The notes under the pieces: model-generated
Database searches by the model: none
What the model saw: only the letters and a program-made list of their open reading frames with translations
Told to the model about the DNA's origin: nothing
Assembly (NCBI GenBank): GCA_902783115.1
Contig: CACZPW010000225.1
Location: 1 to 50,130, forward strand
Length of the DNA: 50,130 bases
Direction: 5' to 3'
Origin: an uncultured Ruminococcus sp.
GTDB taxonomy: Bacteria > Bacillota > Clostridia > UBA1381
Program-made: the position numbers and the translations under genes
Shown here: positions 23,502 to 49,845 of the stretch, one piece after another
Position numbering within the stretch: position 1 is the first letter of the stretch
Layout: each line of letters starts with the position of its first letter

Positions 23502-23536
23502 ATAACTGTTAAAAAGTGTGTTTTGGGAAGGGGGCA

Positions 23537-25801
23537 GTGATTTTGTTTAGCAATAGAAAAACCATATTAAATAAAATAACTATGTCATATTTTGCCATTA
23601 TGATGATAGGAATATTGTTGATAGGAACCATTGCCGATATTATCCTTCAGGATTTCTATGTCAGACAGACCATAAATTATAACAGGACAGTCGTGCGTGC
23701 ACTCAGGGAATATGTACTAAAAGATGTCATAAACGGCATTGACCGCACATATTTAGATGTTATATCCGTTGAGGACGGCAGCGAATTTTTTGTTGATTTG
23801 TTCGATATGGAGGATATAAGCTATAAAAATATCAAAAAAGCCATAAATTATATGAATGATATTGCCGTCAGTGAAAACGGATGGCTGGACGGTATATATA
23901 CATATTTTTCGGAAGCGGGCGTGCTTGCCGGCACGGACGGACTCATATATAAACGGGGAAACCGTGCCAATACCGTTCCCGATTGGATGAACAGTATTTT
24001 AGAGAATGAGGATAAATATATACCCACCCGTCATTACGATATGCTTCCCGCATACGGAGAAGGCAACCAATGTATGCTCGTAAAGCCGTATCCCGTGTTA
24101 TACGGCAACGGAAATGTAAAGGGGTATTTGATATTTAAAGTAGATGAAAAGACATTTTCAAGGATACTTTCGCAGTCGGATGTTTTAAACGGCGGCGAAT
24201 ACAGGGCAATAATAGATAAAAACGGAAACATTATCTCATCTACGCTTGAGGAGCATTACCCCGCCGTATTTGACGGAGCAAAGGAGCTTTATAAGCAAAC
24301 GGAAAATAGCGGGTACATAGAAACAAAGCTCAACTCCAAGCGGTATATCATTACATATTCCTCAATAGAGCCGTATGACTGGCGGCTTATAAGCGTTTGC
24401 CCCAAGGGTGTATTTTACAGGACATTATACAATATCCATCTGGTTATGCTCGCGGTAAGCATTGCGGCGATACTTATGGGACTGGTGATAGCGCGTCATT
24501 ATAAGCGTAAAATTTACAGCCCGATAAAAAGAATCGCAACAAGACTTGTCGGTATCGAGGACGAGGATGTAGATGTGGACGCAGCGATAAATCATATTTC
24601 GCGCCATGTTGAAAATATGCAGGATATGGTAGATTCGGCAAAGCAGTCCGCAAAACGGGAGCTTATCATTTCCCTGTGTCTTAACAATGGCTTTAATGCC
24701 GCAGAGTTTAAAAAACTTGTAAAAATATATCCGTTTAATTCGGATAAGAAAATGTATGCTGCGGCAATATTCAAGCTTGATAAGGATGTTGCCGAAAATC
24801 TTACCGCAGAATCGATAAACGGGATAATTGTAAACGGTATCGACATTATAGAAAGCATGAGCGATGAAGATACCGAATATATGGCGTGCTATTTCGGGAA
24901 TAATGAAATTCTGACCGTTGCAGGATTTTCTCACTCGAATGAAAATATCATAGTTGAGGAAATGAAGAATGTAAAGGACACGATTTTTACGGCATATTAT
25001 CTTAATTTAATATCGGTTGTAGGGATACCGGTAAAGCGGCATGAGGATATACATTTATCATACGAAAGTGTGAGGGAAGCGGAAAAGTATGTTGCGTTTT
25101 CAAAGCAGCAAGGTCCGATCTATGCGCCCGATGTGCTTAAGCTTGAAACAAGCTCCCTGGTTATTGACGAGCGTATAATGGAAAAGCTTCGCAGAAATAT
25201 ATATCTGTTTGATCTGCCTGCCATAAAGGACGACTTAAAAGCCATTGCGGAAGAAATGTCGGGCGGCGGATATTCGGCGTCGTACTGTAATTCAAAGCTT
25301 TTAGAGATAGTAAATATGATTTCCGTCTACATCAGGAATAACGGAATGAATTCCGATGAGATAATGGACAAGGATCTTATAAGCGGGTTTAATGAGATGG
25401 AAAACATTTCCGAATACTTGGAATGGGTCTATGCGATTTTGGAAAGGTTAGCACAGAAAATGGATATACGGAACGAAACCGATATGCAACGCATTACAGA
25501 GCGGGCAAAGGCGTATATTGCGGATAATCTCTCAAAAGAGCTGTCGCTTACATCGGTCTCGGACTATCTGCATATAAGCTCACAGTATTTCTGTAAAATA
25601 TTCAAGGAAGAAACAGATATGAACTTTGTCGACTATGTAACACTGGTGAGAATGGAAAAGGCAAAGGAGCTTCTTACGACCACCAATATGAATATAGAAA
25701 GCGTTGCAAGAAGCGTCGGATACAATACGCCGCATTACTTCACAAAGAAATTCAAGGAGCGTTTCGGCGTAACGCCCAAGACCTTCAGAATGAATCAGTG
25801 A
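23537..25801 (+). CDS. Membrane-anchored AraC/XylS-family one-component sensor-regulator (YesS-like architecture)
   Basis: It has an N-terminal TM segment (YFAIMMIGILLIGTIADIIL), a ~270-aa putative extracytoplasmic domain and a second TM segment (IHLVMLAVSIAAILMGLVIA). The C-terminal double HTH reads YLHISSQYFCKIFKEETDMNFVDYVTLVRMEKAKELL...SVARSVGYNTPHYFTKKFKERFGVTPKTFR. The start is ambiguous: the track uses GTG 23516, and after the GGAAGGGGG RBS there are a GTG at 23537 and a TTG at 23543. Confidence 0.85.
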   Translation: MILFSNRKTILNKITMSYFAIMMIGILLIGTIADIILQDFYVRQTINYNRTVVRALREYVLKDVINGIDRTYLDVISVEDGSEFFVDLFDMEDISYKNIKKAINYMNDIAVSENGWLDGIYTYFSEAGVLAGTDGLIYKRGNRANTVPDWMNSILENEDKYIPTRHYDMLPAYGEGNQCMLVKPYPVLYGNGNVKGYLIFKVDEKTFSRILSQSDVLNGGEYRAIIDKNGNIISSTLEEHYPAVFDGAKELYKQTENSGYIETKLNSKRYIITYSSIEPYDWRLISVCPKGVFYRTLYNIHLVMLAVSIAAILMGLVIARHYKRKIYSPIKRIATRLVGIEDEDVDVDAAINHISRHVENMQDMVDSAKQSAKRELIISLCLNNGFNAAEFKKLVKIYPFNSDKKMYAAAIFKLDKDVAENLTAESINGIIVNGIDIIESMSDEDTEYMACYFGNNEILTVAGFSHSNENIIVEEMKNVKDTIFTAYYLNLISVVGIPVKRHEDIHLSYESVREAEKYVAFSKQQGPIYAPDVLKLETSSLVIDERIMEKLRRNIYLFDLPAIKDDLKAIAEEMSGGGYSASYCNSKLLEIVNMISVYIRNNGMNSDEIMDKDLISGFNEMENISEYLEWVYAILERLAQKMDIRNETDMQRITERAKAYIADNLSKELSLTSVSDYLHISSQYFCKIFKEETDMNFVDYVTLVRMEKAKELLTTTNMNIESVARSVGYNTPHYFTKKFKERFGVTPKTFRMNQ

Positions 25802-25868: not shown

Positions 25869-25920
25869 TACAGTGAGGCAGTTATGTGCACAAATATTTA
25901 AGAAAGGTGTAAGGACAAGT

Positions 25921-26862
25921 ATGGCGAAACGAAACGACAGAGCGATCGGGGACAATAAAAAGTCCGGCAAAAACATATATTGGCGGCAAAGATATTTGCT
26001 GCTTCTGCTTGTGCCGTCGATTGCGTATTTCATTATATTTCATTACATACCTCTATATGGTCTTACCATCGCATTCAAAGATTATCAGATCCAGAAGGGG
26101 ATATTGGGAAGTACATGGGTAGGCTTTGCACATTTTGAGAGGCTCTTCCACATGGAAAGCTTCCGGCAGGTATTTAAGAATACGATCGTACTGGGATTTT
26201 TAAAATTCATTTTCGGGTTCCCGGCTCCGATAATATTCGCTGTTATGTTAAACGAAGTGCAGCATAGCATAATCAAAAAACCGGTACAGACGATATCCTA
26301 TCTGCCGCATTTTATGTCATGGGTAGTGCTGGGCGGAATTTTAACGCAGCTGTTATCTCCGTCTACGGGACCGGTAAATTTGATAATCCAGAAATTAGGC
26401 TTTGAAAAGATATATTTTCTTGCCGATCCAAAATGGTTCAGGACTGTGCTTGTGGTATCCTCGGTATGGAAAAATATCGGCTGGGGCTCCATAGTTTATC
26501 TTGCGGCCTTGTCAAATGTAGACCAGGAGGTACATGAGGCGGCTATGGTGGACGGGGCATCAAGACTTCAAAGGATATGGAAGATCACGATCCCCGAAAT
26601 AGTCCCGATAATAACCATAATGCTTATATTGAATATCGGCTCATTGATAAACGATGATTTTGATCAGGTATTTAACCTCTACAATTCCGCTGTGTACGAT
26701 GTCGGAGATGTGTTGAGTACATACATATACAGAGCAGGTCTTGTGAATTTTGAGTACAGCTTTGCAACGGCGGTAGGCCTCTTTAAAAATCTGATTTCGG
26801 TAGCGCTTGTTCTCTCTACAAACGCAATTTGTAAGAAAATCAACGAGTATTCGATTTGGTAG
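25921..26862 (+). CDS. Carbohydrate ABC transporter permease (LplB/YteP-like, CUT1 family)
   Basis: Multi-TM protein with a typical MAKRNDR...YWRQRYLLLLLVPSIAYFIIFHYIPLYGL N-terminus. The EAA-loop-like segment is EAAMVDGASRLQRIWKITIPEI. I prefer the ATG at 25921 over the track GTG at 25873, which would sit at the predicted transcript start. Confidence 0.85.
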   Translation: MAKRNDRAIGDNKKSGKNIYWRQRYLLLLLVPSIAYFIIFHYIPLYGLTIAFKDYQIQKGILGSTWVGFAHFERLFHMESFRQVFKNTIVLGFLKFIFGFPAPIIFAVMLNEVQHSIIKKPVQTISYLPHFMSWVVLGGILTQLLSPSTGPVNLIIQKLGFEKIYFLADPKWFRTVLVVSSVWKNIGWGSIVYLAALSNVDQEVHEAAMVDGASRLQRIWKITIPEIVPIITIMLILNIGSLINDDFDQVFNLYNSAVYDVGDVLSTYIYRAGLVNFEYSFATAVGLFKNLISVALVLSTNAICKKINEYSIW

Positions 26863-26873
26863 GAGATATAAAA

Positions 26874-27767
26874 ATGCGAAAAAGAAGGTCTTTATTACAA
26901 AGAAAAACGAAAGGCGATATCATTTTTGATATCGTAAATGTGATCATACTGTTTATTGTATGCTTTGCTACGCTCTATCCGTTTTATTATCTTTTGGTGA
27001 TGTCCTTTACAAGCGGAGATGTTCCTCTTACGCAGATGTACTGGTACCCGCCGAAGGTAACGCTGTCAAACTATGCGAAGGTGCTTTCCGACAGCGCGAT
27101 ATGGAACGGATTCAGAAACACGATAATAAGAACGGTGTTAGGTACCGCAATATCGGTACTGGCGGTAATATGTACGGCGTATCCGCTGTCAAAAAAATAT
27201 CTTGTACACAGAAACCTTTTTACAAGCTTTGTTGTTATTACAATGTTTGTAAGCGGCGGTACGATACCAAGTTATCTGCTTGTTAAAAACATGGGGATTA
27301 TGGATACGGTATGGGCGTTGGTACTGCCTACAGCCATAAGCGCATATAATGTCGTTATCACGCGGAACTTCTTTATGAGCATACCCGCGTCATTGGAGGA
27401 ATCGGCGCAGCTTGACGGTGCAAACGATATAGAGATACTGTTTAAAATATATGTACCCGTTTCCTTGCCGATAATTGCAACGATCACCCTGTGGGTGGCG
27501 GTGGCACACTGGAATGCGTGGTTTGACAGCCTTATCTACATAACCAATTCAAATAAACAGGTTTTACAGATAGTTATGCGAAGGATAGTTCTTGAAGGAA
27601 CGCAGGATATGTTAAATCCCGATGCGTTTGAGGAATCGATGCACGTAAATGCTGAAACCATCAAGGCAACTACCGTTATGGTAACAACGATCCCGATACT
27701 GCTGGTATATCCGTTTATCCAGAAGTATTTTGTAAAGGGTGTTATGGTCGGCTCGCTTAAGGGCTGA
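26874..27767 (+). CDS. Carbohydrate ABC transporter permease (LplC/YtcP-like)
   Basis: Six-TM pattern with the EAA-type loop ESAQLDGANDIEILFKIYVPVSLP. An AGGAG RBS lies upstream of the ATG at 26874. Confidence 0.85.
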   Translation: MRKRRSLLQRKTKGDIIFDIVNVIILFIVCFATLYPFYYLLVMSFTSGDVPLTQMYWYPPKVTLSNYAKVLSDSAIWNGFRNTIIRTVLGTAISVLAVICTAYPLSKKYLVHRNLFTSFVVITMFVSGGTIPSYLLVKNMGIMDTVWALVLPTAISAYNVVITRNFFMSIPASLEESAQLDGANDIEILFKIYVPVSLPIIATITLWVAVAHWNAWFDSLIYITNSNKQVLQIVMRRIVLEGTQDMLNPDAFEESMHVNAETIKATTVMVTTIPILLVYPFIQKYFVKGVMVGSLKG

Positions 27768-27828
27768 TATAAAATAAATGAAAATATACAATGTGGCGTA
27801 AGCAGATTACGCCGTCAAAAAGAAAGGA

Positions 27829-29463
27829 ATGGATAAAATTATGAAAGCAGAGAAGATTTTGACACTCGTACTTGCAATATCACTTGCGGCAGCATCGCTT
27901 GCGGGCTGTGCAGGCAAAGAGCAGGCACAAAACGATGATTCGCAGTACACCTATACAATGACGATGTATCAGACAAGAAATTCAAATCCTGATGCCGTCA
28001 TGCTTAAAAATATTGAGGAAAAATACGGTATCAAGCTAAAGGTTATAGATATTGAGTGGCAAAAATACGATGAGATCTTAAATCTGAAGCTCTCAGGCGG
28101 CGAGATCCCCGACATAATTTATACAAAGTCGCCTGTTTCGGCAAGCAAGTACGTTCAGCAGGATGTTGTCGGAAGTATACCGATGGAGCTGCTTGAGGAA
28201 AAAGCTCCCAATATACTCAAAAGAGTAAAGGACAGCAGCGGAGATATTATGAAATACTATTACATAAACGGAGAATTGTATGCTTTGCCGCAGTTTTCTG
28301 TAGGTTCGGGCCCGTCGGGAATCCCGATGGTATGGCGTGGCGACTGGCTTGAAAAGGTCGGCATAACCAAAACTCCCGAAACGCTGGATGAATTTGAACA
28401 GGCATTTTATAAGTTTGCAAACGAAGATCCCGATGGAAACGGTGTAAAGGACACATACGGACTTTCGGCATCGGGTTTGACTTCTGTTTTTGCATCTTAC
28501 GGATATGTACCGGCACTCGGCTCGGTTTCAAAAGAGAGTGCATGGCAGGAAAGGGACGGCAAGCTTGTTTTTGCGGCGATACAGCCCGAAATGAAAGAAG
28601 CACTTAAAAGAATTGCAAAATGGTACGCGGACGGAGTTCTCGATCCTGAGTTTATAACCGGTGAGAACAAAGGCGGATACTGGGCTATCTCGCATCAGTT
28701 TATCAACGGGATAATAGGCTTTACATCTCACGGGAACAGCTATCATTGGGAGCCTATGTTCTACGCAGACGCAGATCCGAGTACATCGGGTCAGGACACA
28801 TACGAGTTTTCAAAGCTCAATCCGGAGGCGGCAAAGCAGCTTGTTGTAAATGCCAAAGTTCCCACGCTTGTTGCGGGACAGGAGAAGGTGTATGAGAAAG
28901 CGCCGCTGGTTAAAAATGAAAGATGGATGTTCAGCAAAAAGCTTGTCAATGACAAGGAAAAATTTGAACGCTTGCTTGAGATCTACAATGATATTTACGA
29001 AAGCAAAGAAAATTTTGATTATGTTAAAAACGGCGAGAAGGGCGTAGTATGGGATTACGAGGATGTGCAGTCCGTAGACGGTAAGACCTATAAGAGAACG
29101 GTGTTCCTGGGCGAATGGAAGGATGACGAATACAGAAACGATAACCTGTTCAATTTTGCACCGTTCAATCCCACATTCGTTGAGGCGGAGCAGTATAAAA
29201 CTCCGCGTGATGACTGGGCTGTTCCCAGAGGCTTTGATAAGCAGTATATGCCGTATTCACAGTTGTATGCGCCGCTGCCGTCGGCTTCTATGTATAATGC
29301 GGAGCTGACAAAAATCGAAGAGGAAGCTTATACCGATATTATAACCGGCGATAAGCCTGTCGATTATTTCGATGAATTTGTCAAAAAATGGCGTGCGGCA
29401 GGCGGAAGTGTTCTGGAAAAAGAAGCCCAGGAGTGGTATGACGAAGTGAACAGTGCAAAATAA
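27829..29463 (+). CDS. Extracellular solute-binding lipoprotein of the ABC importer (large LplA/YtcQ-like type)
   Basis: Lipobox LAAASLAGCAG. The ~540-aa size and motifs (GEIPDIIY, WRGDWLEKVGI, FANEDPDGNGVKDTYGL) are typical of oligosaccharide-binding proteins. The ATG at 27841 is an alternative start. Confidence 0.85.
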   Translation: MDKIMKAEKILTLVLAISLAAASLAGCAGKEQAQNDDSQYTYTMTMYQTRNSNPDAVMLKNIEEKYGIKLKVIDIEWQKYDEILNLKLSGGEIPDIIYTKSPVSASKYVQQDVVGSIPMELLEEKAPNILKRVKDSSGDIMKYYYINGELYALPQFSVGSGPSGIPMVWRGDWLEKVGITKTPETLDEFEQAFYKFANEDPDGNGVKDTYGLSASGLTSVFASYGYVPALGSVSKESAWQERDGKLVFAAIQPEMKEALKRIAKWYADGVLDPEFITGENKGGYWAISHQFINGIIGFTSHGNSYHWEPMFYADADPSTSGQDTYEFSKLNPEAAKQLVVNAKVPTLVAGQEKVYEKAPLVKNERWMFSKKLVNDKEKFERLLEIYNDIYESKENFDYVKNGEKGVVWDYEDVQSVDGKTYKRTVFLGEWKDDEYRNDNLFNFAPFNPTFVEAEQYKTPRDDWAVPRGFDKQYMPYSQLYAPLPSASMYNAELTKIEEEAYTDIITGDKPVDYFDEFVKKWRAAGGSVLEKEAQEWYDEVNSAK

Positions 29464-36525: not shown

Positions 36526-37293
36526 ATGGTTAAAGGAATAGTTACCGATATACAGCGGGCATCGTTTCACGATGGGTACGGAATACGGACGACGGTTTTT
36601 TTAAAGGGTTGTCCGCTCTCATGTAAGTGGTGCCATAATCCGGAATGTATATCATTTGAAAAAGAGATAATGGAATACCCCGAAAAATGTATCCATTGCG
36701 GAAAATGCTCAGAGGGTTGCTTTTCGGGCGCAAGGGTAGTCTGCGGACGGGAATTGACTGCACGGGAGGTGCTTGAAGAAATAGATGAGGATAGGAGCTA
36801 TTACGGTAATGACGGGGGCGTAACGGTTTCCGGCGGTGAGCCCATGGCTCAAAAGGACTTTGCAAATGAGCTGATAGACATTTGCCGTGAACAAAAAATA
36901 AGCTGTGCCATGGAAACATCACTGATATATTTTGATGAAAAGATTTTAAAAAAACTTGATTTTATAATGGCGGATCTCAAGATTTGGGACAGCGGTATTC
37001 ATAAGGCATATACAGGTGTCGGGAATGAAGTGATCAAAGAGAATTTTAAAAAGCTCAACGGATTGAATATCCCCATAATCGCAAGAACGCCCGTCATTCC
37101 GGGAGTAGAACAGGGAATAGATGAAATTTCGGAGTTTTTAAAAGGCCTTTCTAACGTTGTAAGGTATGAGCTTTTGCCGTACCACCCGCTCGGGATCTCA
37201 AAAGCGAAGGCACTAAAAAGGGCGGTTGAGGAATTTAATATACCGTCTGCGGAATACATGGAGGAGTTAAAAAAATATGCTTACATACGATGA
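36526..37293 (+). CDS. Glycyl-radical enzyme activating enzyme (radical SAM) with one extra ferredoxin-like Cys cluster
   Basis: The radical-SAM motif is CPLSCKWCHNPE. The additional cluster is CIHCGKCSEGC. The SAM-binding-like segment is GGVTVSGGEPMAQ. The gene overlaps the following GRE gene by 17 nt. Confidence 0.9.
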   Translation: MVKGIVTDIQRASFHDGYGIRTTVFLKGCPLSCKWCHNPECISFEKEIMEYPEKCIHCGKCSEGCFSGARVVCGRELTAREVLEEIDEDRSYYGNDGGVTVSGGEPMAQKDFANELIDICREQKISCAMETSLIYFDEKILKKLDFIMADLKIWDSGIHKAYTGVGNEVIKENFKKLNGLNIPIIARTPVIPGVEQGIDEISEFLKGLSNVVRYELLPYHPLGISKAKALKRAVEEFNIPSAEYMEELKKYAYIR

Positions 37294-39487
37294 CAGATTG
37301 AAGCTTATGCGTGAAACAAAAATCAAGCATACTTTTGAAAAAAGAACACAAAACGGGTATACCGATGTCGATGATTACGGTACTGTTCCCATTACGGACG
37401 GTTATGATGTTGAGCCGTGGTATAACGCTATGGACGGCAGATTTTTCGGCTATGAGGGAATGTGTGAAAACTTCTGCCGCGTGATCGATGCGCATCCTGC
37501 GTATGTCGATCCCATGGAGATGCTTTGCGGCAGGTGGCGTGATATGCTTGAAAATTACCGGGGTGATGTAAATTATCTTCCCGATTGGATAAAAAATAAG
37601 TCAAAGCTTATGGACCGTATAAAAGGCGGTGATGGGTGCAGCAGAAACTGGAACGAGCAACGGTTTCCCTATGACGATTTAAAGCCGTTACAGGAAAAGT
37701 ATAATATCGAATCCGGCATAGAAGGCAATTCACATCTTGCCTGTGATTACCGCATCGGTTTTTCGCTTGGGTTTGGCGGACTTTTGGATAAAATAGAAAA
37801 ATACAGAAAAATAAATCCCGATAAATCCGATTTTTATGATGCGGAGGAAAAGACCCTTCTTGCAATAGTCAGATTTATCGACAGGCATATTGAAAAAACA
37901 GATGAGCTTTTAAAAACAGAGGACAGAAAAGAGATAAGAGCAAGTCTTGAAACTATGAAACAGGTTTGCCAAAACATAAGGACAGGCGCACCAAAGACAT
38001 TCCATGAGGCGTGTCAGTGGACAGCGTTCTTTATTTGTGCGTCAAGGATTTATACCCGCGACGGCGCGGGGTTTCAGATGGATACGCTTTTGTATCCGTA
38101 CTATAAGCGTGATATTGAGGCAGGGATTTTGGACGATGAAACGGCAAAATTCTTAATTGCAAATCTTTTATTGATCGATCCGCACTATTACCAGATCTCA
38201 GGCGTTGACGAAAACGATAACGATATGACAAACCACCTTTCATACCTTATATTGGAGGCGGCGGACAGTATAGATATTGCCTGCAACCTGACTGTAAGGG
38301 TACATAAAAACTGCGACAGAAAGTTTTTTGAAAAGGCGGTATATTATCTGCTTAAAAACAAAAACGGCTGGCCGAGATTCTGTAATGATGACGCCCTTTG
38401 TAACGGATATATGAAAAACGGAGTCGATAAAAAGACGGCAAGGGAAAGAATAGCGGTAGGCTGTAACTGGATGTGTGTTCCGGGTAAGGAATTTCCGATG
38501 AACGACACGGTAAAGATAAATATAGCAAAGGTCATGGAAGCGGCGCTTTTTGATATGCGAAACGAGGCTCTGAGGAGTACCGAAAGGCTTTTTGAGTTAT
38601 TTAAAGAGCATCTTAGGATAGCAGTTGACACAACGGCAAAGGGTGTGAATCTTCATATAGACCATCAGGCGGAGGTAACGCCCGAACTTGTAATGAATCT
38701 TATGATGGAAAATACCATAGAACAAGGCGAGGATATTTCAAGATGTGCCTCATTGTATACGGTAGGTGTTGACGGTGCGGGACTTGCGGTAGTTGCGGAT
38801 TCGTTTGGAGCACTCCAAACAAGAGTGGAACAGGAAAAGGTGCTTACATGGGATGAGGTATATGAAGCTCTTGACAATAATTTTGAGGATGAGAGAACGC
38901 GCCTTATCTTAAACAGCGCACCCAAATACTGTCATGGTAACACCGTATCGGATGAATGGGCAAAGAGGCTTACGGATTGTTGGGTGGAAAGTATAGTAAA
39001 TCAGAAGATGCCGGAGGGCAGATGCCTTGTTCCGGGCTGGTTTTCGTGGGCAAGAACGATCGAATACGGCTCAAAGGTAGGAGCTACGCCAAACGGAAGA
39101 AGAAAGGGCGAGCCTATATCGCATGGCGCAAACCCGAATCCGCATTTCAGGGCTGACGGAGCACCTACGGCACAGTCAAACGGAATAGCGTCTGTTCAGT
39201 GCGGTTATGGGAATACGGCACCGCTTCAGATAGAGTTTGACCCCAAGCTTGCGGCTGATGAAAAGGGTGTTGAGATAGTGGGAAAACTGATATTGGGACA
39301 TTTTGAACAGGGCGGAACGCTGATAAACATAAATATACTTGATAAGGAAACGATATTGGAGGCAAACAAGGATCCCGATCTGTACCCCGACCTTGTGGTA
39401 AGGGTAACAGGCTTTACAGCGTATTTTGCAAGCCTTTCACCAAAATTCCGCCAGCTTGTAGTGGACAGATTTTTAGAAGGAGTATAA
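37277..39487 (+). CDS. Glycyl-radical enzyme (PFL-superfamily, 736 aa) with an atypical Cys loop
   Basis: GGAGGAG RBS at 37261-37267. The C-terminal glycyl-radical motif is VVRVTGFTAYFASLSPKFRQLVVDR (Gly codon 39410-39412). The Cys loop is AVGCNWMCVPGKE (Cys codon 38462-38464). The family-typical ATPNGRRKGEPISHGANP...GAPTA is present. Confidence 0.9.
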   Translation: MLTYDDRLKLMRETKIKHTFEKRTQNGYTDVDDYGTVPITDGYDVEPWYNAMDGRFFGYEGMCENFCRVIDAHPAYVDPMEMLCGRWRDMLENYRGDVNYLPDWIKNKSKLMDRIKGGDGCSRNWNEQRFPYDDLKPLQEKYNIESGIEGNSHLACDYRIGFSLGFGGLLDKIEKYRKINPDKSDFYDAEEKTLLAIVRFIDRHIEKTDELLKTEDRKEIRASLETMKQVCQNIRTGAPKTFHEACQWTAFFICASRIYTRDGAGFQMDTLLYPYYKRDIEAGILDDETAKFLIANLLLIDPHYYQISGVDENDNDMTNHLSYLILEAADSIDIACNLTVRVHKNCDRKFFEKAVYYLLKNKNGWPRFCNDDALCNGYMKNGVDKKTARERIAVGCNWMCVPGKEFPMNDTVKINIAKVMEAALFDMRNEALRSTERLFELFKEHLRIAVDTTAKGVNLHIDHQAEVTPELVMNLMMENTIEQGEDISRCASLYTVGVDGAGLAVVADSFGALQTRVEQEKVLTWDEVYEALDNNFEDERTRLILNSAPKYCHGNTVSDEWAKRLTDCWVESIVNQKMPEGRCLVPGWFSWARTIEYGSKVGATPNGRRKGEPISHGANPNPHFRADGAPTAQSNGIASVQCGYGNTAPLQIEFDPKLAADEKGVEIVGKLILGHFEQGGTLININILDKETILEANKDPDLYPDLVVRVTGFTAYFASLSPKFRQLVVDRFLEGV

Positions 39488-39552
39488 CTGCATATTGAAT
39501 AAATAAGCGGTTATTCAGGAAAATTTATTGTTAAGACTGAGAGGTATAAGAC

Positions 39553-40578
39553 ATGAAATATAAAGAGTTGGTAAAAAGAGTTGCAGACAGAATGATCGAT
39601 GAAAACCCTGTTTCGAGAGTTATGACAATAACTGAATTTGACTGGGTTGACGGCGTAGGAATGTACGGTCTGCTTCGTGCGGCGCAAAAATACGGTTTTG
39701 ATGAATATGTACGGTTTATGAAGCAATGGGTGGAAAGCAATAAAGACAAGGCATACCGTATAAACACCGTAAACGGCACGGCTGCAATGATCGCAATATT
39801 GGATATGTGCGGCGGCTTAGACGATGAAAATATAGATTTGTGCAGATATGTGGGCGAGTATATCATAAACGATGCGGACAGAACAGACAACGGAGCGCTT
39901 GAGCATACGGTTACGGACCCGAATTTTGTATTTCATCAGCAGATGTGGGCAGATACTCTGTTTATGAGCTGTATATTCCTTGCAAAGCTCGGCAAGAAAA
40001 CGGGCGAAAAGAAATATGCCGATGAGGCTGTAAAACAGCTCAGGCTGCATCATAAATTCCTCAAAGACAAAGAAACGGGCTTGTTTTTCCACGGCTATTC
40101 CTGTATAACTAAGGATAATATGTCATCTATTGACTGGGCGAGAGCCAATGCGTGGATCACGGCAAGTACGGTAGAGATATTGGAACTCTTACCTGCGGAT
40201 TTTGAGGGCAGGGACGAAATACTTTACTCATTAAACGAGCAGGTCGAGGGATATGCAAAGTATCAGCGCAGCAGCGGTATGATCACAACCATTATCAATG
40301 ATCCGACAAGTTATGAGGAAACCTCCGCTACAGCAGGCATGGCGTACGGTATATGCAGAGGAATTAAAGACGGTTATATTGACGCCAAATATGCAGATGT
40401 ATATAAAAGAGCGGTTGACGGTGTTATAAGAATGATTGACAGTGAGGGATATGTTGGCGGCGTGTCTTCGGGAACTCCTGTTATGCCCGATGCACAAGGC
40501 TATAAGGACATCATCATTGAGCCGATCTTATACGGACAGGCACTAACTGTAATGATGTTGTGTGAAGTCGATGGCTGA
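39553..40578 (+). CDS. GH105/GH88-type unsaturated (rhamno)galacturonyl/glucuronyl hydrolase, cytoplasmic
   Basis: No signal peptide. Motifs are WVDGVGMYGLL, MWADTLFMSCIFLAKLG, GLFFHGY, DWARANAW, YEETSATAGMAYG and GVSSGTPV. These match my recollection of the YteR/YesR/UGL (alpha/alpha)6 family. Confidence 0.8.
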   Translation: MKYKELVKRVADRMIDENPVSRVMTITEFDWVDGVGMYGLLRAAQKYGFDEYVRFMKQWVESNKDKAYRINTVNGTAAMIAILDMCGGLDDENIDLCRYVGEYIINDADRTDNGALEHTVTDPNFVFHQQMWADTLFMSCIFLAKLGKKTGEKKYADEAVKQLRLHHKFLKDKETGLFFHGYSCITKDNMSSIDWARANAWITASTVEILELLPADFEGRDEILYSLNEQVEGYAKYQRSSGMITTIINDPTSYEETSATAGMAYGICRGIKDGYIDAKYADVYKRAVDGVIRMIDSEGYVGGVSSGTPVMPDAQGYKDIIIEPILYGQALTVMMLCEVDG

Positions 40579-40622
40579 TCACTTTGGATAAACCGGTGTT
40601 TTTATAAATACAAATAAAAGTA

Positions 40623-40651
40623 TTGACATATTATGTATAATATGATAAACT
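40623..40651 (+). promoter_or_regulatory. Candidate sigma-A promoter for the second activase/GRE/kinase/isomerase unit
   Basis: Consensus TTGACA (40623-40628), a 17-nt spacer, then an extended -10 TGaTAAACT (TAAACT at 40646-40651). Confidence 0.6.
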
Positions 40652-40682
40652 CTAATTAGTTAAAGAGTTTAACTAATTAGAG
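40650..40682. promoter_or_regulatory. Perfect 15-bp inverted repeat; candidate operator or RBS-occluding hairpin
   Basis: CTCTAATTAGTTAAA-gag-TTTAACTAATTAGAG has no mismatch. It starts inside the -10 element and ends inside the GAGGTG RBS of the activase gene. Confidence 0.7.
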
Positions 40683-40691
40683 GTGTTTTTT

Positions 40692-41393
40692 ATGCGGATC
40701 TTCAGCAAAGGCTTTAATTTTAATCAGGACGGACCGGGAAACAGGCTTGTCTATCATCTTCAGGGCTGTAATATGAGGTGTATATGGTGTTCCAATCCTG
40801 AAGGTATGTCATTGGACGGGGGAGAGGAATATACGGTTTTGGAGATGCTTGATGAGTGCATAAGGAGTAAACTGATGTTTTTTTCCGGCGGAGGGGTCAC
40901 ATTCACAGGCGGTGAGGCAACAGTGCAGTATAGCGAGCTTCAAGAGCTTATAAAGCTCTTGAAGAGCGAAAATATCCACACCTGCATTGAAACAAACGGG
41001 ACATCGAAAGGGCTTACAGAGCTTTTGCAATATATTGATTATCTGATAATGGATTTTAAACACTACGATAGCAGAACACTGGAAAAATACACAGGCATCG
41101 GGAACGATACGGTAAAAATGAATTATGAAAGCAACTGTAAAACCGGAAGACAGCAGCATATAAGGATCCCGTTGATCAATGGAATAAATACGGATGATCC
41201 AAACGGATTTGCAGAGTATTTTTCAAGATTTGATACAAAAAACACCGTGTTTGAGTTTTTGTCCTACCACGAGTATGGCAGGCAAAAATGGAAAGGTGAG
41301 TATAAAGTAAAAAATGGATTTGTTCCGTCCGAAACGCTTGAAAAGTTTAAAGAGACCTTTATGGCATATAATCTTAATTTAATAACCACATAG
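40692..41393 (+). CDS. Glycyl-radical enzyme activating enzyme, minimal PflA-like type with no ferredoxin insert
   Basis: The radical-SAM motif is GCNMRCIWCSNPE and the SAM-binding-like segment is GGGVTFTGGEATVQ. I prefer the ATG at 40692 (GAGGTG RBS 6 nt upstream) over the track GTG at 40683. Confidence 0.9.
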   Translation: MRIFSKGFNFNQDGPGNRLVYHLQGCNMRCIWCSNPEGMSLDGGEEYTVLEMLDECIRSKLMFFSGGGVTFTGGEATVQYSELQELIKLLKSENIHTCIETNGTSKGLTELLQYIDYLIMDFKHYDSRTLEKYTGIGNDTVKMNYESNCKTGRQQHIRIPLINGINTDDPNGFAEYFSRFDTKNTVFEFLSYHEYGRQKWKGEYKVKNGFVPSETLEKFKETFMAYNLNLITT

Positions 41394-41405
41394 GAGGTGC
41401 TGATT

Positions 41406-43733
41406 ATGTTTGGAATTTACAAAAGCGGTGAAATCACTCAAATGGCAAAGGAGCTCTATAAGGAAGAAAGGCAAATAAAAAGACTTGACGGATGGTTCAG
41501 AGCAAAAGAAATTGAGATGCTGGCAAATGAGAAATACTCTGACTGCACTCCCGACGTTAAGCAAGCATACCTTCTGTGCGAGGTTTTAAAGGCGATCCCC
41601 ATATCCATAAGCGACAATGCGATTTTTGCGGGAACCCAGCGCGATGCTTTTGCAAAAAGCTATGCGCTCATCAACCCGTCCTTTACTGTTGAGGGGTTTT
41701 CGGGGTATTGCGACCCTATGGCAATATATAATGATATTGAGCCAAACGATGAATTTACAAAAGAGCGAATAGATAAGGTACGCTCCTTTACGGCAAAAAC
41801 AAAAATGGTTGAAATGCTAAATAAAACCTATGCTGAAGCGGAAAATTATACAAAAGAGGTCATATTTTTTGTCGAACAGGTAACGGGACATGTGATTCCG
41901 GATTTCAGGTCTGCGTTGAAATACGGCGTTGATGCGCTTATTGAAGAAGCAAATTCAAAGACGGGCGAGTTTTATAAAGCCGCAGCAATAGCCCTTAGCG
42001 GTGTAAAAATTCTTGCGGACAGATATATAGGACTTATCAGGGAGCAAAAGCAAAGCTGTACACAAAAAAGGCTTGAACAGCTTAAAATTCTTGAGGAGAC
42101 GCTTGTAAATATTTCATCTGAGGGCGCAAAAAATCTGTATGAAGCGATCCAACTGTACATTTTACTGTGGGAGATTATGTGTATCGAACAGGCGCCCAAT
42201 CCATACGCCTTTTCCGTGGGTAATGCGGACAGGATTTTTGAGCCCTACAGAGGTGGGCTTTCAAGGGAGGAAGCAAGCGAGCTGTTCAAGCATTTTCTTG
42301 TTTTCTACAATGTAGGCGACCGCAGCTGGGCTATTTCTCAGAATGTTCTTATCAGCGGCAGGGATATTGACGGCAATGACCTCACAAATACAATGTCCTA
42401 TGCTATTATGGACGCATACTATGATATGAATTTACCGCAGCCCATCTTGTCGGTGAAGCTGCATAAGAATACCCCGCAAGAGCTATATGCCCAAATGGGA
42501 AGATTTTTCTTTTCGCCCGGGGTACTTACGCCGTCGCTATTCAATGATGACGCATTGTTTGAGGTCTTGAAGAATAACGGAGTGGATGCGGAGGATATTC
42601 CCGATTATTCTGTAGCGGGCTGTCAGGAGCCGCTGATTATGGGAAGAGATAACGGCAATACAACAAACAGTTGGCTTAATCTTCCAAAGGTGCTTGAAAT
42701 GGTTTTAACGGGAGGCTGTTCCACAATAACGGGTGATAAACTTATAAATACGCCTCCGTATACCCTTGAAAACATAAGAGATGTGTTTTACAAAGCATTG
42801 GATAAAGTGTGCGACAAAATGGTTCAGGCGGCAAACGGTGCTTCCTGTGCACTATCAGAGCTCAGAGTGCCGTTTTTAAGCGTGTTTATGGGCGGGCTTA
42901 CATCTGGTGCGGATATGCGCGATACTAAAAAGCAGGGCACAAAATATAACGGAAGCGGGTGTTTGGTGCACGGGCTTAGTGTTCTTGCCGATTCGTTTGT
43001 CGCCATTGATGAGTTTGCAAAAAAATATCCCGATGGAAAGGAAATGCTCATAAGTGCGATAAAGAGTGATTTCGAAGGCTATAAAGATTTAAGGGAATTT
43101 CTTTTATCATGCCCAAAGTTTGGGAACAATACAGAGGTTGTTGATAAAGAGGCGAGGGAAATTGCCATCAGGGTTTCTAAATTATTACGCTCAAAGAAAA
43201 ACTATTTGGGGAATCCGTTAAGACCTGACTTTTCAAGCCCGTCAACACACCTTACATACGGTTATTGGGTGGGAGCAACCCCGGACGGAAGAAAGAGCCG
43301 CGATATGCTTGGCTACGGTGTCGATCCGCTTTACGGTGAGGCATCAAATGGGTTGGGCTTCAGAATGCTTTCAAATATGCAGCTTCCGTTTGAAGAATTT
43401 AACGGCGGGTATGCCTCGCATCTTGGTATTGATCCAAAATACTTTGCAGGCGGTGATTACGGAGAAAAGGGAGTAGCATTCTATCAAAACATTGTCCGCC
43501 CGCTGTTCTTTAATGAGCTTAAAGACGGTGTATCGCCTTTTTATCTGTATGTAAATGTAACCACGCCCGAAACCTTGAGAAAGGTTTTGGCGAATCCGCA
43601 AAAATATGCGCCAAGCGGCGTGTATATAATGAGAATACACGGAACATTTGTGAATTTTCTCGATTTATCGCCACAGATACAGCGGGATATTATTACAAGG
43701 CTTGATCTTAAATCAACATCAATGGGTTGTTAG
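41406..43733 (+). CDS. Glycyl-radical enzyme (PFL-superfamily, ~775 aa) with an eliminase-like Cys-x-Glu loop
   Basis: AGGAGG RBS (41392-41397) lies 8 nt before the ATG at 41406 (the track uses GTG 41397). The Cys loop is VAGCQEPLIMG (Cys codon 42621-42623, Glu codon 42627-42629). The glycyl-radical motif is IMRIHGTFVNFLDLSPQIQRDIITR (Gly codon 43641-43643). GATPDGRKSRD is also present. Confidence 0.9.
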   Translation: MFGIYKSGEITQMAKELYKEERQIKRLDGWFRAKEIEMLANEKYSDCTPDVKQAYLLCEVLKAIPISISDNAIFAGTQRDAFAKSYALINPSFTVEGFSGYCDPMAIYNDIEPNDEFTKERIDKVRSFTAKTKMVEMLNKTYAEAENYTKEVIFFVEQVTGHVIPDFRSALKYGVDALIEEANSKTGEFYKAAAIALSGVKILADRYIGLIREQKQSCTQKRLEQLKILEETLVNISSEGAKNLYEAIQLYILLWEIMCIEQAPNPYAFSVGNADRIFEPYRGGLSREEASELFKHFLVFYNVGDRSWAISQNVLISGRDIDGNDLTNTMSYAIMDAYYDMNLPQPILSVKLHKNTPQELYAQMGRFFFSPGVLTPSLFNDDALFEVLKNNGVDAEDIPDYSVAGCQEPLIMGRDNGNTTNSWLNLPKVLEMVLTGGCSTITGDKLINTPPYTLENIRDVFYKALDKVCDKMVQAANGASCALSELRVPFLSVFMGGLTSGADMRDTKKQGTKYNGSGCLVHGLSVLADSFVAIDEFAKKYPDGKEMLISAIKSDFEGYKDLREFLLSCPKFGNNTEVVDKEAREIAIRVSKLLRSKKNYLGNPLRPDFSSPSTHLTYGYWVGATPDGRKSRDMLGYGVDPLYGEASNGLGFRMLSNMQLPFEEFNGGYASHLGIDPKYFAGGDYGEKGVAFYQNIVRPLFFNELKDGVSPFYLYVNVTTPETLRKVLANPQKYAPSGVYIMRIHGTFVNFLDLSPQIQRDIITRLDLKSTSMGC

Positions 43734-43743: not shown

Positions 43744-45024
43744 ATGAAGGCAATAGGAATTGATATAGGCACGACAAGCGTGTGTGGTGTGGTAATAGAT
43801 GTGCAAAGCGGCGAACTCATAACCTCAACAACCAAAAACAGCGATGCTTTTTTAGCCGGCGTAGCAGACTGGGAAAAAATACAGTCAGTTGACAAGATCA
43901 TGGATGTCGCCGTAAGCATTCTTGACGGGCTCATTGACAGCGATGTGTCTGTGATAGGCGTAACCGGTCAAATGCACGGCATAGTTTATACCGATATAAA
44001 CGCAAATGCGGTAAGCCCGTTATATACATGGCAGGACGGGAGGGGAAACCTGCCGTATAAAGATACAACGTACGCAAAGCATCTGAACAGCTTTTCCGGG
44101 TATGGGAATGTAACAGATTTTTACAACACAGAAAATGGAATAAGACCTAAAAATGCTGAAAGCTACTGTACCATACACGATTATTTCGTGATGAGGCTTT
44201 GTGGCTTGAATGTTCCGGTTATGCACTCAAGCGATGCGGCGAGTATGGGGTGTTACAGTATAAGTGAAAACAGGTTTGACTATGAGTGTAATGTTGATTT
44301 GACTTCGGATTACCGTATAGCCGGTGAGTATAAGGGTATACCCGTAAGTGTAGCGATAGGAGACAATCAGGCAAGTGTATTCTCAACTCTTGCGGATAAA
44401 AACGATATTCTTGTGAATGTAGGAACGGGAAGCCAGATTTCGATCATATCCGACAAACCCGTTGCTGCGGACAATATCGAAACACGACCGTATTTTGAAA
44501 ATGATTACCTGGTTGTCGGCTCGGCACTTTGCGGAGGCAGGGCATATTCGATGTTAAAGGATTTTTACTCGGGTGTTTTTAAGTATATTGAAGATGTCGA
44601 CGATGACAGAGTATACAAAATTATGAGCAAAATGCTCAAGGACGGTGATAAGTCATCCTTAACAGTCGACACCCGGTTTGCGGGGACCAGGAAGGATCCG
44701 AAACATTGCGGGAGCATCAGCGGAATAACCGTGGACAATTTTAAGCCCGCTTATGTTACGGTGGGCGTGCTTGACGGAATGGCGGCGGAGCTTTTTGGGA
44801 TGTATAAGCAGATGAACCGGGTAAGATATGGAATTGTCGGGTCCGGCAACGGAATACGGAAGAATCCGGCACTTGTTAAAAGGTTTGAAATGCTGTTCGG
44901 TACAGAAATGAAAATACCGAAGCATTTGGAAGAAGCTGCTTTCGGAGCGGCGTTGTTCGGTCTGATCTCCTGCGGGATCTTCAAAAATGCTGCGGAAGCA
45001 CAGAAAATTATAAGGTATAACTGA
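43744..45024 (+). CDS. FGGY-family carbohydrate kinase (sedoheptulokinase-like subgroup); substrate unknown
   Basis: GGGAGAGGG RBS before the ATG at 43744. The N-terminal ATPase motif is MKAIGIDIGTTSVCGVVID. It also has GVTGQMHGIVY, AIGDNQASV, NVGTGSQ and GSGNGIRKNPAL. Confidence 0.8.
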   Translation: MKAIGIDIGTTSVCGVVIDVQSGELITSTTKNSDAFLAGVADWEKIQSVDKIMDVAVSILDGLIDSDVSVIGVTGQMHGIVYTDINANAVSPLYTWQDGRGNLPYKDTTYAKHLNSFSGYGNVTDFYNTENGIRPKNAESYCTIHDYFVMRLCGLNVPVMHSSDAASMGCYSISENRFDYECNVDLTSDYRIAGEYKGIPVSVAIGDNQASVFSTLADKNDILVNVGTGSQISIISDKPVAADNIETRPYFENDYLVVGSALCGGRAYSMLKDFYSGVFKYIEDVDDDRVYKIMSKMLKDGDKSSLTVDTRFAGTRKDPKHCGSISGITVDNFKPAYVTVGVLDGMAAELFGMYKQMNRVRYGIVGSGNGIRKNPALVKRFEMLFGTEMKIPKHLEEAAFGAALFGLISCGIFKNAAEAQKIIRYN

Positions 45025-45037: not shown

Positions 45038-46054
45038 ATGATGAACGAGCCGATTTTTTTTGAGAGAAACAGGGTACGGCGTGTGTACACCGGTGGCAGG
45101 CTTTTTGGCGATTTTTTTGGTGATGAGCCTGTGGACGGTTTTATGCCGGAGGAATGGATAGCCTCGTCCGTAGAGGCGATCAACAGGGAAAAGACAAGCG
45201 AAAAAGAGGGTGTTTCCATTGTAAAGGGCAGCGGCATATACTTTGACGAGCTTTTGGAAAAGTATCCCCTTGAAATGCTTGGCAGCAGACAAAAAATGCG
45301 TGTGCTTGTAAAAATATTGGATAGTGCCGTAAGACTTCCCGCACAGGCGCACCCTGATAAGGAGTTTTCAAGAAAATATTTTAATTCGGAGTACGGAAAG
45401 ACAGAGAGTTGGATAATTCTTGATAAAAGGCAGGATGCAAAAATATATTTTGGGTTTAAAGACGGCGTTGACAGAAAACTCTTTTCTGACGCAATAGACG
45501 CAAGTGAAAAAGATAAAAACGCAATGGAAAGACTTATGGAATGTTATGAGCCTCAGATAGGCGATGTCTTTTTAGTCCCCGCCAAAACCGTCCATGCCAT
45601 AGGGGCAGGCTGCCTGATACTGGAGGTTCAGGAACCGACGGATTTTACAATTCAGCCTGAGCATTGGTGTGCAGATTACAGGCTCAGTGATGATGAGATG
45701 TATATCGGGCTTTCGAAAGAGGAAGCAATAGGCTGTTTTAATTTTTGCAAATCGCCCGATACCGGGATCGTCCCCGTAACGGTATATCACAAAGACCGAG
45801 CGAGAGTCGAGAATGTGATAAAGCCGTCAGATACCGGTTGTTTCATCATCAACCGTATTACGCTAAACGGCGGTGAGTACACATTAAGCGTAAATGACAG
45901 CTACGGTGTGTATATTGTAACAGAAGGTACCGGCGAGATTTGCGGCGATGGCTATTCAAAGAAAATACAAAAAGGAGATTACTTTTTTATGCCTGCTTGT
46001 CTTATGGATAGATTTTGTTTAAAAGGCAGTATGAAAGTAACGGAATGTTTTTAA
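45038..46054 (+). CDS. Class-I phosphomannose-isomerase-like cupin (sugar-phosphate or keto-sugar isomerase)
   Basis: VLVKILDSAVRLPAQAHPD, YGKTESWIILD and FLVPAKTVHAIGAGCLILEVQEPTDFT match the type-I PMI metal-site layout (Q/H...E...H). Confidence 0.75.
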   Translation: MMNEPIFFERNRVRRVYTGGRLFGDFFGDEPVDGFMPEEWIASSVEAINREKTSEKEGVSIVKGSGIYFDELLEKYPLEMLGSRQKMRVLVKILDSAVRLPAQAHPDKEFSRKYFNSEYGKTESWIILDKRQDAKIYFGFKDGVDRKLFSDAIDASEKDKNAMERLMECYEPQIGDVFLVPAKTVHAIGAGCLILEVQEPTDFTIQPEHWCADYRLSDDEMYIGLSKEEAIGCFNFCKSPDTGIVPVTVYHKDRARVENVIKPSDTGCFIINRITLNGGEYTLSVNDSYGVYIVTEGTGEICGDGYSKKIQKGDYFFMPACLMDRFCLKGSMKVTECF

Positions 46055-46104
46055 TTTAAACAAATGCAAGTATCATATTGAATAAAAACGGAGTTATTAA
46101 AGAT

Positions 46105-47193: not shown

Positions 47194-47198
47194 AAATT

Positions 47199-47489: not shown

Positions 47490-47508
47490 ATAAAAGTCAA
47501 ACAAAAGG

Positions 47509-47818: not shown

Positions 47819-47851
47819 AAATATGTAATTTTGATTTCAGGCGGTGCTGAT

Positions 47852-49807: not shown

Positions 49808-49845
49808 GTATATACTATTATAATTGAGAAAGGAGTGAAATAACC

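Follow-up and report, generated by a model that had tools for sequence, protein, structure and literature searches.

We analyzed a window of 50,130 nucleotides from an uncultured Ruminococcus sp. (GTDB lineage Bacteria; Bacillota; Clostridia; UBA1381; GenBank assembly GCA_902783115.1, contig CACZPW010000225.1, positions 1 to 50,130, forward strand), in which two glycyl-radical enzymes (GREs), GRE-1 and GRE-2, are each encoded next to a radical-SAM activase (AE1 and AE2) and lie on either side of a gene for a GH105-type unsaturated uronyl hydrolase. We favor, with a probability of roughly 0.55, the reading that this region is a mosaic of three separately inherited units, with two sugar-catabolic GRE modules set beside a native polysaccharide operon. 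The two enzymes most likely represent new sugar-catabolic GRE subfamilies and not a branch of uronate catabolism.

Open reading frame (ORF) listing and Pfam and NCBIfam profile searches of window ORFs of at least 80 amino acids (aa) indicated that the five genes AE1, GRE-1, GH105, AE2, and GRE-2 are intact at 36.5 to 43.7 kb (Table 1). Judged by motif, the Gly and Cys loops of the two GREs are intact, and an activase predicted to be cognate accompanies each. A first-pass annotation of this DNA had described two GRE-activase pairs flanking the GH105 gene, and all four of the motifs by which it recognized the activases and GREs are present (CPLSCKWC and RVTGFTAYF, CNMRCIWC and RIHGTFVNF). The translational overlap that it reported for the first pair is also real, with the 3' end of AE1 overlapping the start of GRE-1 by 17 nt.

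The clearest evidence on the origin of this arrangement comes from the GH105 gene. The encoded protein has a full-length domain (PF07470, 256 bits, residues 7 to 339) and matches solved GH105 structures in a PDB search (3qwt, 4.7e-54; 3pmm; 4xuv). Its N terminus, MKYKELVKRVADRM, contains no hydrophobic signal-like stretch as judged by eye, in agreement with the signal-less GH105/GH88 hydrolase of the first-pass annotation, and the enzyme is predicted to be cytoplasmic and part of the importer operon. Its sole NCBIfam match is NF051900, "beta-galactosidase BglB" (289 bits versus a cutoff of 420), an odd label for a PF07470 protein; we rejected this name, which falls below the cutoff and is unexplained in the literature, in favor of the GH105 assignment indicated by the PDB matches. 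The nearest GH105 homologues (74 to 75% identity) are in three loci, L100, L101, and L102, that are orthologous to the locus in the window and carry no GRE. Gene order in L100 is solute-binding protein (SBP; 81% identity), two SLH proteins (51% each), and GH105 (75%), followed by hairpins with a T run that we called a terminator by eye, and a PL8 lyase gene lies near this locus. In L102 the order is AraC regulator (53%), two permeases (79% and 77%), SBP (75%), and GH105 (74%). No GRE was present in the syntenic loci L100 and L102. Because these orthologous loci carry GH105 without a GRE, GH105 can be regarded as the native terminal gene of the operon. This first unit would comprise the AraC/dCache regulator, the ABC importer, the two SLH proteins, and GH105, with the hydrolase trimming unsaturated uronate from imported lyase products. 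Most parsimoniously, AE1-GRE1 forms a second unit that was inserted between the last SLH gene (884 aa) and GH105, and the GRE-2 cassette appears to have been appended 3' of GH105. From these comparisons, the bracketing of GH105 by two GREs would be a trait of this lineage and not a conserved design.

The gaps flanking AE1-GRE1 are 41 and 65 bp long and contain no promoter-like or terminator-like site, and therefore these two genes are probably transcribed together with the polysaccharide operon. As the first-pass annotation stated, no terminator-like site was found in the plus-strand intergenic gaps between 25.9 and 40.6 kb, though such sites occur in the region at chance level (20 observed versus 15.8 ± 4.2 expected).

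The third unit has a different organization. The GRE-2 cassette, in the order AE2, GRE-2, FGGY kinase, mannose-6-phosphate-isomerase (PMI)-like cupin, and ROK regulator, appears from its sequence to have its own promoter, operator, and regulator and would be an autonomous, ROK-repressed module. The promoter and palindrome that had been noted before AE2 are both present (Table 1). Alignment of the regions 5' of AE2 revealed a palindrome core, TTAGTTAAA-N3-TTTAAC, which is shared by the window, L092, and L093/94 and differs by one substitution in L060; TTGACA promoters are also found 5' of the related palindromes in these loci. The exact palindrome of the window is absent from other loci, the conserved core being visible only by upstream alignment, and within the window its half-site shows no enrichment. 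A ROK gene is present in the fetched stretch for the window, L092, and L060, and none was seen in L093/94. The regulator has the winged helix and ROK domain expected of a ROK repressor, and the palindrome core lies at the promoter and is kept in three further loci; we consider the palindrome a probable ROK operator. More generally, the cassette occurs in two regulatory versions, with either a divergent AraC gene or a ROK gene, TTGACA promoter, and palindrome. Folded as RNA, the palindrome forms a hairpin (-16.5 kcal/mol, z = -4.8) that takes in the AE2 ribosome-binding site and has a U run after it. Transcription from the cassette promoter would start within the left arm and yield an RNA free of the hairpin, and for this reason the structure, if it folds as modeled, may insulate the cassette against read-through from the operon. 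The two GREs, first presented as a pair wired into one locus, are therefore better described as separately inherited modules, one of which has its own regulator, promoter, and operator.

The closest GRE-2 cassette elsewhere (L092:4020-9202, 85% identity) lies directly 3' of integrase, TnpV, NikA-like, and relaxase genes, which suggests that this copy travels on a mobilizable element.

Separate inheritance raises the question of whether the juxtaposition has any functional meaning. It is conceivable, if rather unlikely, that the two GRE modules arrived as mobile cassettes, inside or next to the locus, and act on unrelated substrates. The relaxase and integrase genes adjoining the L092 cassette would fit such a history, as would the independent regulation of the GRE-2 cassette, the RNA hairpin and U run at its head, which would stop read-through from GH105, the variation in the flanks of both cassettes between genomes, and the Fic gene and low-GC stretch 3' of the cassette in the window. 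Evidence for a functional connection is that AE1-GRE1 lies promoterless inside the operon, implying coexpression with the importer and GH105, and that glycoside hydrolase genes occur near both families in other genomes (GH5, GH28, and GH30 for GRE-1; GH38 and GH32 for GRE-2). That at least one of the GREs has a substrate derived from this glycan is, in our estimate, about as likely as not.

We surveyed GRE-1 in 44 loci from species-representative genomes, supplemented by look-ups, with denominators that vary by feature. AE1 accompanies GRE-1 in 37 of 40 loci, with conserved adjacency, and at least one GFO/IDH/MocA oxidoreductase gene (typically two to five) lies upstream of GRE-1 in 26 of 35. 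A TIM-barrel protein is encoded in 15/28 loci, and its best models are hydroxypyruvate isomerase and 2-oxo-tetronate isomerase. AraC regulators are frequent, GH5, GH28, or GH30 genes are sometimes found beside the cassettes, and the Pfam profile of 114 GRE-1 neighbor clusters contained little beyond GFO and AraC. Carbohydrate genes lie beside both GRE families in most surveyed genomes, with the exception of the most distant GRE-1 relatives. An FGGY kinase or a true GRE-2 relative adjoining GRE-1 elsewhere was never seen in the surveyed loci; two matches to the GRE-2 query at GRE-1 loci (GRE-x in L034 and one in L050) are other GREs, at 22 to 25%. We also considered the TIM-barrel protein as a C-glycoside/3-keto-glycoside lyase and rejected this reading, as the barrel matches the two isomerases and only GFO1 gives a faint match to the BT_2158 family. 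One named species, Qingrenia yutianensis, carries a GRE-1 cassette.

The survey bears directly on the link to unsaturated uronates that the first-pass annotation had proposed, and it does not sustain that link: GH105 was found near GRE-1 in 0/43 loci and near GRE-2 in 0/17 loci with enough flank, and the orthologous GH105 loci are GRE-less. Since the adjacency of GH105 and GREs is specific to this lineage, it is unfit as a basis for inferring a radical uronate pathway. In such a pathway, the two GREs would together stand in for KduI/KduD/KdgK/KdgA and act on DKI, the 4,5-unsaturated uronate that GH105 sets free. AE1-GRE1 does lie immediately 5' of GH105 without an intervening terminator-like site, a hydroxypyruvate-isomerase-like TIM barrel and reductases near GRE-1 elsewhere could mimic KduI and KduD, and a GH28 gene lies beside the GRE-1 cassette in L095. 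In addition, neither Kdu/Kdg-type genes nor microcompartment shell genes were found among the scanned window ORFs, as had been noted from the sequence, but the window covers only 50 kb of the genome, and Kdu/Kdg genes may be located elsewhere. The self-regulated GRE-2 cassette, with its GH38, GH32, kinase, and PMI-like associations, points to neutral hexoses instead, and together with the counts above this makes a joint replacement of the Kdu/Kdg route improbable.

For GRE-2, 41 metagenome loci plus look-ups were surveyed, with flank-dependent counts based on 17 loci. AE2 adjoins GRE-2 in 26/34 loci, and an FGGY kinase gene is present in 20/30, nearly always directly downstream. Among the 17 loci with enough flank, seven encode the PMI-like cupin, about five a GH38 enzyme, four an aldose epimerase, and two a TAL/FSA-family protein; GH32 occurs in two loci, GH27 is also among the neighbors, and the regulators are of the AraC or ROK type. 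The TAL/FSA-family gene (215 to 216 aa) lies between GRE-2 and the kinase gene (L092:12349-12999 and L052:8212-8856), and the L092 protein is 36 to 38% identical to E. coli FsaA and FsaB. In L004 to L006, a GH38 alpha-mannosidase fused to an aldo-keto reductase domain is encoded directly 3' of the GRE-2 kinase (L004:9057-12455, L006:5229-8426), and a homologue with 40% overall identity lies upstream of the cassette in L060 (L060:5893-8958). This fusion is unusual and hints at a reduction step coupled to mannoside cleavage.

Such neighbors invite a more specific proposal, in which GRE-2 removes or rearranges a nonhydrolyzable mannose substituent, such as the 4,6-pyruvyl ketal of xanthan-like exopolysaccharides or an O-methyl ether, and the kinase and PMI-like protein take the freed mannose to fructose 6-phosphate. 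The kinase and PMI-like protein follow the logic of mannose to mannose 6-phosphate to fructose 6-phosphate, several genomes add genes for a GH38 alpha-mannosidase and a mutarotase to the cassette, a PL8 lyase occurs in the related locus L100, and two SASA-type esterases are encoded in the window. The published gut xanthan locus, for which no GRE is reported, relies on PL8, GH88, GH38, and esterases, with pyruvylated mannose as a released product, and a 2024 xanthan review, searched by term, contains neither "depyruvyl" nor a passage on the further metabolism of pyruvylated mannose. Within the window, however, no PL8, GH5, GH38, or Pel9 homologue was detected, and GH32 and GH27 are ill-fitting neighbors for this substrate. 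We also know of no precedent for the cleavage of a ketal or an ether by a GRE, and we give the removal of a mannose substituent only a slim chance.

The most distinctive feature of GRE-1 is its Cys loop. Cys396 aligns with Cys433 of glycerol dehydratase, and Trp398 occupies the position of Glu435 in that enzyme; GRE-1 and GRE-2 both retain the counterpart of its His164. All C-O, C-N, and C-S eliminases and three isomerases (HplG, YbiW, and PflD) keep a Cys-x-Glu (CXE) motif whose Glu touches the substrate, and two Cys residues on the Cys loop are found only in pyruvate formate-lyase (PFL) and TdcE (PMC13450708). GRE-1 departs from the CXE motif, with C-N-W in place of it and C-[N/H]-W in 45/45 relatives; the loops GC[N/H]W and RVTGF[T/S/C]AYF are kept in all 45 sequences. 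The best 119 of 1,820 matches to GRE-1 all share 76 to 85% identity with it. In the AE1 family, CX3CX2C is accompanied by 5 to 7 further Cys residues, instead of eight, within 75 residues of the first radical-SAM Cys, and the ferredoxin-like insert is shortened.

To place this motif, we searched 1.84 billion representative proteins (50% clustering) and took the top 150 matches, of which 133 span the Cys loop; 52 of these have Cys-x-Trp and 68 have Cys-x-Glu. In a neighbor-joining tree of 108 full-length sequences, all 24 full-length Cys-x-Trp sequences fall into one clade, from which other motifs are absent, and GRE-2 pairs with one other C-Q-E sequence, apart from PflD/YbiW.

Distant Cys-x-Trp GREs, at 40 to 43% identity, were found in L044 (8693-17396), L047 (2427-5547), and L048 (2080-3138). 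The gene order in L044 is Zn-alcohol dehydrogenase, GRE, E2, E3, and fused E1 of a 2-oxoacid/acetoin dehydrogenase complex. A URO-D-like protein adjoins the GRE in both L047 and L048, with a hydantoinase-like protein also present in L047. Nearer relatives occur in four Acutalibacteraceae-type metagenome-assembled genomes (MAGs; L031, L032, L034, and L043; e.g., L034:7060-12211), where GRE-1 orthologues with 64 to 67% identity lie 3' of a third GRE, an unrelated enzyme of the CXE type (Cys loop YGCGEY, Gly loop RVGGFSARF). A single activase gene lies between, and is shared by, the two GREs, and the genes 3' of the pair in L031 and L032 encode large surface proteins with a membrane anchor. By their motifs, these loci appear to have brought Cys-x-Trp and CXE GREs together a second time, independently of the window.

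GRE-2 has the CXE feature, and C-Q-E is unchanged in its family. The Cys of its AGCQEP motif aligns with PflD Cys431 and YbiW Cys441, and every complete relative has AGCQEPL and MRIHGTFVNF without change; identity to GRE-2 is 80 to 85% for all of the best 119 of 3,466 matches. The AE2 family lacks a ferredoxin-like insert and consists of the radical-SAM domain only. An insert-less activase, as in PFL-AE, is an exception among GRE activases (PMC13450708). Most of the best-listed relatives of both GREs have no source name, those that are named come from Clostridia MAGs (Oscillospiraceae and Ruminococcaceae) or Q. yutianensis, and the annotations are only "PFL family protein," "formate acetyltransferase," or "hypothetical."

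Both proteins have the features of the GRE superfamily, i.e., a PFL-like barrel (PF02901), a catalytic Cys, a Gly loop (in variant form in GRE-2), and an adjacent CX3CX2C activase. Against full-length equivalog models (PflB, the PflD-type NF007437, HypD, HpfG, HpsG, CutC, HPAD, and IAD), GRE-1 scored 73 to 223 bits and GRE-2 scored 58 to 173 bits, compared with cutoffs of 994 to 1,150; for HypD, HpfG, HpsG, CutC, HPAD, and IAD, the scores of 58 to 223 bits compare with cutoffs of 1,000 to 1,150. Neither GRE exceeds one-quarter of any curated NCBIfam equivalog cutoff. The best PDB match of both is glycerol dehydratase 1r8w (about 1e-55 for GRE-1 and 1e-52 for GRE-2), followed by PflD, YbiW, HypD, PD, HplG, IslA, CutC, HpyG, HpzG, BSS, and MASS. 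GRE-1 and GRE-2 are 20% identical to each other, and each is 24 to 25% identical to PflD/YbiW and 19 to 22% identical to PflB; E. coli PflD and YbiW are 39% identical to each other by direct alignment. On these measures, neither GRE belongs to a characterized family, and the possibility raised in the first-pass annotation that both lie inside characterized clades is not borne out by the scores, matches, or identities. The view that they are ordinary pyruvate formate-lyases or glycerol/propanediol dehydratases, which the public labels and the best PDB match might encourage, is refuted at the sequence level by the TIGR01255 scores (73 and 76 bits versus 994), the missing CC motif, the low identity to PflB, the absence of the dehydratase Glu from GRE-1, and the lack of shell genes in the scanned ORFs.

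How the two modules might function can be outlined from these patterns. The Glu that GRE-1 lacks is the residue with which characterized GRE eliminases, isomerases, and decarboxylases deprotonate or hydrogen-bond the substrate. GRE-1 probably acts by a different mechanism on a keto-sugar or polyol, which could be made or consumed by the GFO/IDH/MocA enzymes and would not undergo Glu-assisted 1,2-elimination. A bolder proposal is that GRE-1 represents a mechanistically new GRE class, defined by the Cys-x-Trp loop and a large monophyletic clade without a characterized member, which performs Glu-free radical chemistry on a keto-sugar or polyol from GFO/IDH/MocA dehydrogenases and was recruited here with a second, CXE-type sugar GRE cassette to ferment a hydrolase-resistant modified sugar of an acetylated uronic-acid glycan; taken as a whole, this proposal is doubtful. 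Since GRE-2 keeps both Cys-x-Glu and the His164 equivalent, its likely activity is that of a C-O-cleaving eliminase or isomerase. We tentatively suggest, at somewhat less than even odds, that this activity is directed at a mannose- or fructose-type hexose derivative and coupled to phosphorylation, in which case the kinase would phosphorylate the substrate or product and feed it into glycolysis.

The first-pass annotation had envisaged radical chemistry on a sugar-derived intermediate of the glycan as an undescribed catabolic branch. The sugar connection is supported by the carbohydrate genes beside both families in most surveyed genomes, and the uronate branch is not supported. Nor is such chemistry any longer without precedent, because YbiW and PflD act on 1,5-anhydrohexitol 6-phosphates (PMC13450708), substrates missing from that annotation's list of known GRE substrates.

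Several observations weigh against a sugar-catabolic role for the two modules or limit how far it can be taken. The window lacks the GFO partners usual for GRE-1, whose role here may therefore differ. Distant Cys-x-Trp GREs lie in nonsugar contexts (a 2-oxoacid dehydrogenase complex; URO-D with hydantoinase), and the Cys-x-Trp clade is thus functionally mixed; the tree that defines it was built by neighbor joining with no bootstrap, from sampling biased to the top GRE-1 matches. The GRE-2 Gly loop, RIHGTFVNF, is atypical in that the invariant Gly is followed by Thr, the Pfam Gly_radical model gives no match, and formation of a glycyl radical by GRE-2 is assumed from the motif. The PMI-like cupin and FGGY kinase are too divergent for naming. 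The L092 TAL/FSA protein has Glu and Phe where FsaA/FsaB have Gln and Tyr (Gln59 and Tyr131 in FsaA), a pair that we take to be a transaldolase signature; its identity as an FSA, and with it the parallel with FsaA, is weakened. The substrates proposed for GRE-1 and GRE-2 are substrate classes, deduced from motifs and neighbors.

The features of the region are listed in Table 1. Homologue lengths and ribosome-binding sites indicate that the most likely starts are ATG 40692 for AE2 (alternative, 40683), ATG 41406 for GRE-2 (alternative, 41397), and ATG 43745 for the FGGY kinase.

Table 1. Annotated features of the polysaccharide operon and the two GRE modules in the window
Feature	Coordinates	Strand	Evidence
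AraC-type regulator, dCache sensor domain	23516..25801	+	Pfam HTH_18, HTH_AraC, dCache_1; 53% identity to L102 regulator
ABC importer: two permeases and 544-aa SBP	25873..29463	+	BPD_transp_1 x2, SBP_bac_8; 75-81% to L100/L102 orthologues
Two SLH-anchored surface proteins, 1398 aa (CBM4_9, Big_2) and 884 aa	29550..36484	+	Pfam SLH, CBM_4_9, Big_2; 51% to L100 pair directly 5' of GH105
AE1, radical-SAM GRE activase, shortened ferredoxin-like insert	36526..37293	+	255 aa; CPLSCKWC; TIGR02494 254 bits (cutoff 174)
GRE-1, Cys-x-Trp clade	37277..39487	+	736 aa; PFL-like E=1e-94; Gly_radical E=7e-13; VGCNWMCVPG; RVTGFTAYF
GH105-type unsaturated uronyl hydrolase, predicted cytoplasmic	39553..40578	+	341 aa; PF07470 E=7e-76
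Sigma-70-type promoter of GRE-2 cassette	40623..40651	+	TTGACA-17-TAAACT, upstream TG
Inverted repeat CTCTAATTAGTTAAA-GAG-TTTAACTAATTAGAG, probable ROK operator	40650..40682	.	Perfect 15-nt arms, 3-nt spacer
AE2, short PFL-AE-like activase, no auxiliary cluster insert	40692..41393	+	233 aa in homologues; CNMRCIWC; TIGR02493 147 bits, TIGR02494 147 bits, both below cutoff
GRE-2, divergent CXE-type GRE	41406..43733	+	775 aa; PFL-like PF02901 E=1.4e-104; Cys loop AGCQEPL; Gly loop MRIHGTFVNF
Divergent FGGY-family sugar kinase	43745..45024	+	Pfam FGGY_N, FGGY_C; best NCBIfam XylB 69 bits (cutoff 380)
PMI-like cupin	45038..46054	+	PF21621; TIGR00218 68 bits, below cutoff; B. subtilis PMI 1qwr E=1e-16
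ROK-family transcriptional regulator, N-terminal winged helix	46078..47193	+	Pfam ROK, MarR_2; orthologues at cassette end in L092, L060

Upstream of these features, positions 240 to 23123 of the window encode six mutually paralogous, very large proteins (808 to 1,622 aa) with repeated modules of about 330 aa, CBM4_9 domains, and two SASA-type acetylesterase domains. Profile searches found no recognizable GH or lyase domain in the giant and surface proteins of the window; the giant paralogues may hide catalytic domains that act on the target glycan. The window's giant surface proteins have no homology to the giant proteins encoded beside GRE-1 cassettes elsewhere. At the other end, from the ROK gene onward (46000 to 50130), GC content falls from about 44% to 35 to 37%; this stretch contains a Fic/DOC protein gene with a C-terminal HTH (47831 to 48985) and AT-rich inverted repeats at 47053 to 47132, 47576 to 47617, and 47775 to 47806. 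The low-GC stretch and inverted repeats may mark the edge of an inserted segment.

Overall, GREs that act on sugar phosphates are already known, and the Cys-x-Trp clade is the most interesting element here, as the absence of the catalytic Glu across this large clade would imply a different mechanism. In gut anaerobes, GREs supply a chemistry that is not known from any hydrolase or oxygenase. GRE-2 with its kinase and PMI-like protein forms a widespread Clostridial cassette, which would extend radical sugar catabolism past the anhydrohexitol route of E. coli. Q. yutianensis, if culturable, would offer an experimental entry point for the GRE-1 cassette. Many abundant gut GREs have unknown functions according to a 2024 review, and literature searches for GREs tied to polysaccharides or unsaturated uronate, inositol, FGGY/FSA/mannitol, or sugar-linked network clusters returned only PMC13450708 and general statements.

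Among known systems, the xanthan locus of Ruminococcaceae UCG13 resembles the window in having an ABC importer, surface-anchored multidomain enzymes, acetylesterases, and a cytoplasmic unsaturated uronyl hydrolase; it differs in that no GRE has been reported there, while the surface proteins of the window have no recognizable GH or PL domain. Pyruvate formate-lyase and TdcE share the superfamily fold and glycyl-radical domain with both GREs, and PFL-AE, like AE2, has the radical-SAM domain only, but neither GRE has the adjacent two-Cys motif, and both fall far below the TIGR01255 cutoff given above. The B12-independent glycerol dehydratase of Clostridium butyricum (1r8w) is the best match of both GREs, shares the His164 equivalent with both, and has Cys-x-Glu in common with GRE-2. 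The subfamily model TIGR01774, however, gives 291 bits for GRE-1 and 238 bits for GRE-2 compared with a cutoff of 678, GRE-1 has Trp in place of Glu435, and there are no nearby shell or aldehyde-processing genes. A further comparison is with the anhydroglycolysis enzymes YbiW and PflD of E. coli (PDB 8id7, 8id0, and 8yjo), which share the CXE Cys loop with GRE-2 and themselves act on sugars. Their genes are found with sugar uptake or phosphorylation functions, in E. coli together with FsaA/FsaB and GldA, and some GRE-2 cassettes likewise include a gene of the TAL/FSA family and an aldo-keto reductase domain; of this pathway context, the kinase is common at GRE-2 loci, whereas the TAL/FSA gene is rare and absent from the window. 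In contrast to YbiW and PflD, GRE-2 has an FGGY kinase and a PMI-like cupin as its partners and not a phosphotransferase system (PTS), AE2 has no ferredoxin insert, and GRE-1 has no Glu. The NF007437 scores are 218 bits for GRE-1 and 173 bits for GRE-2 against a cutoff of 1,109, and the position of both GREs outside the PflD/YbiW clade of the tree also tells against a closer relationship. The GRE-2 cassette would be the Clostridial counterpart of the E. coli YbiW/PflD route in logic, not in orthology.

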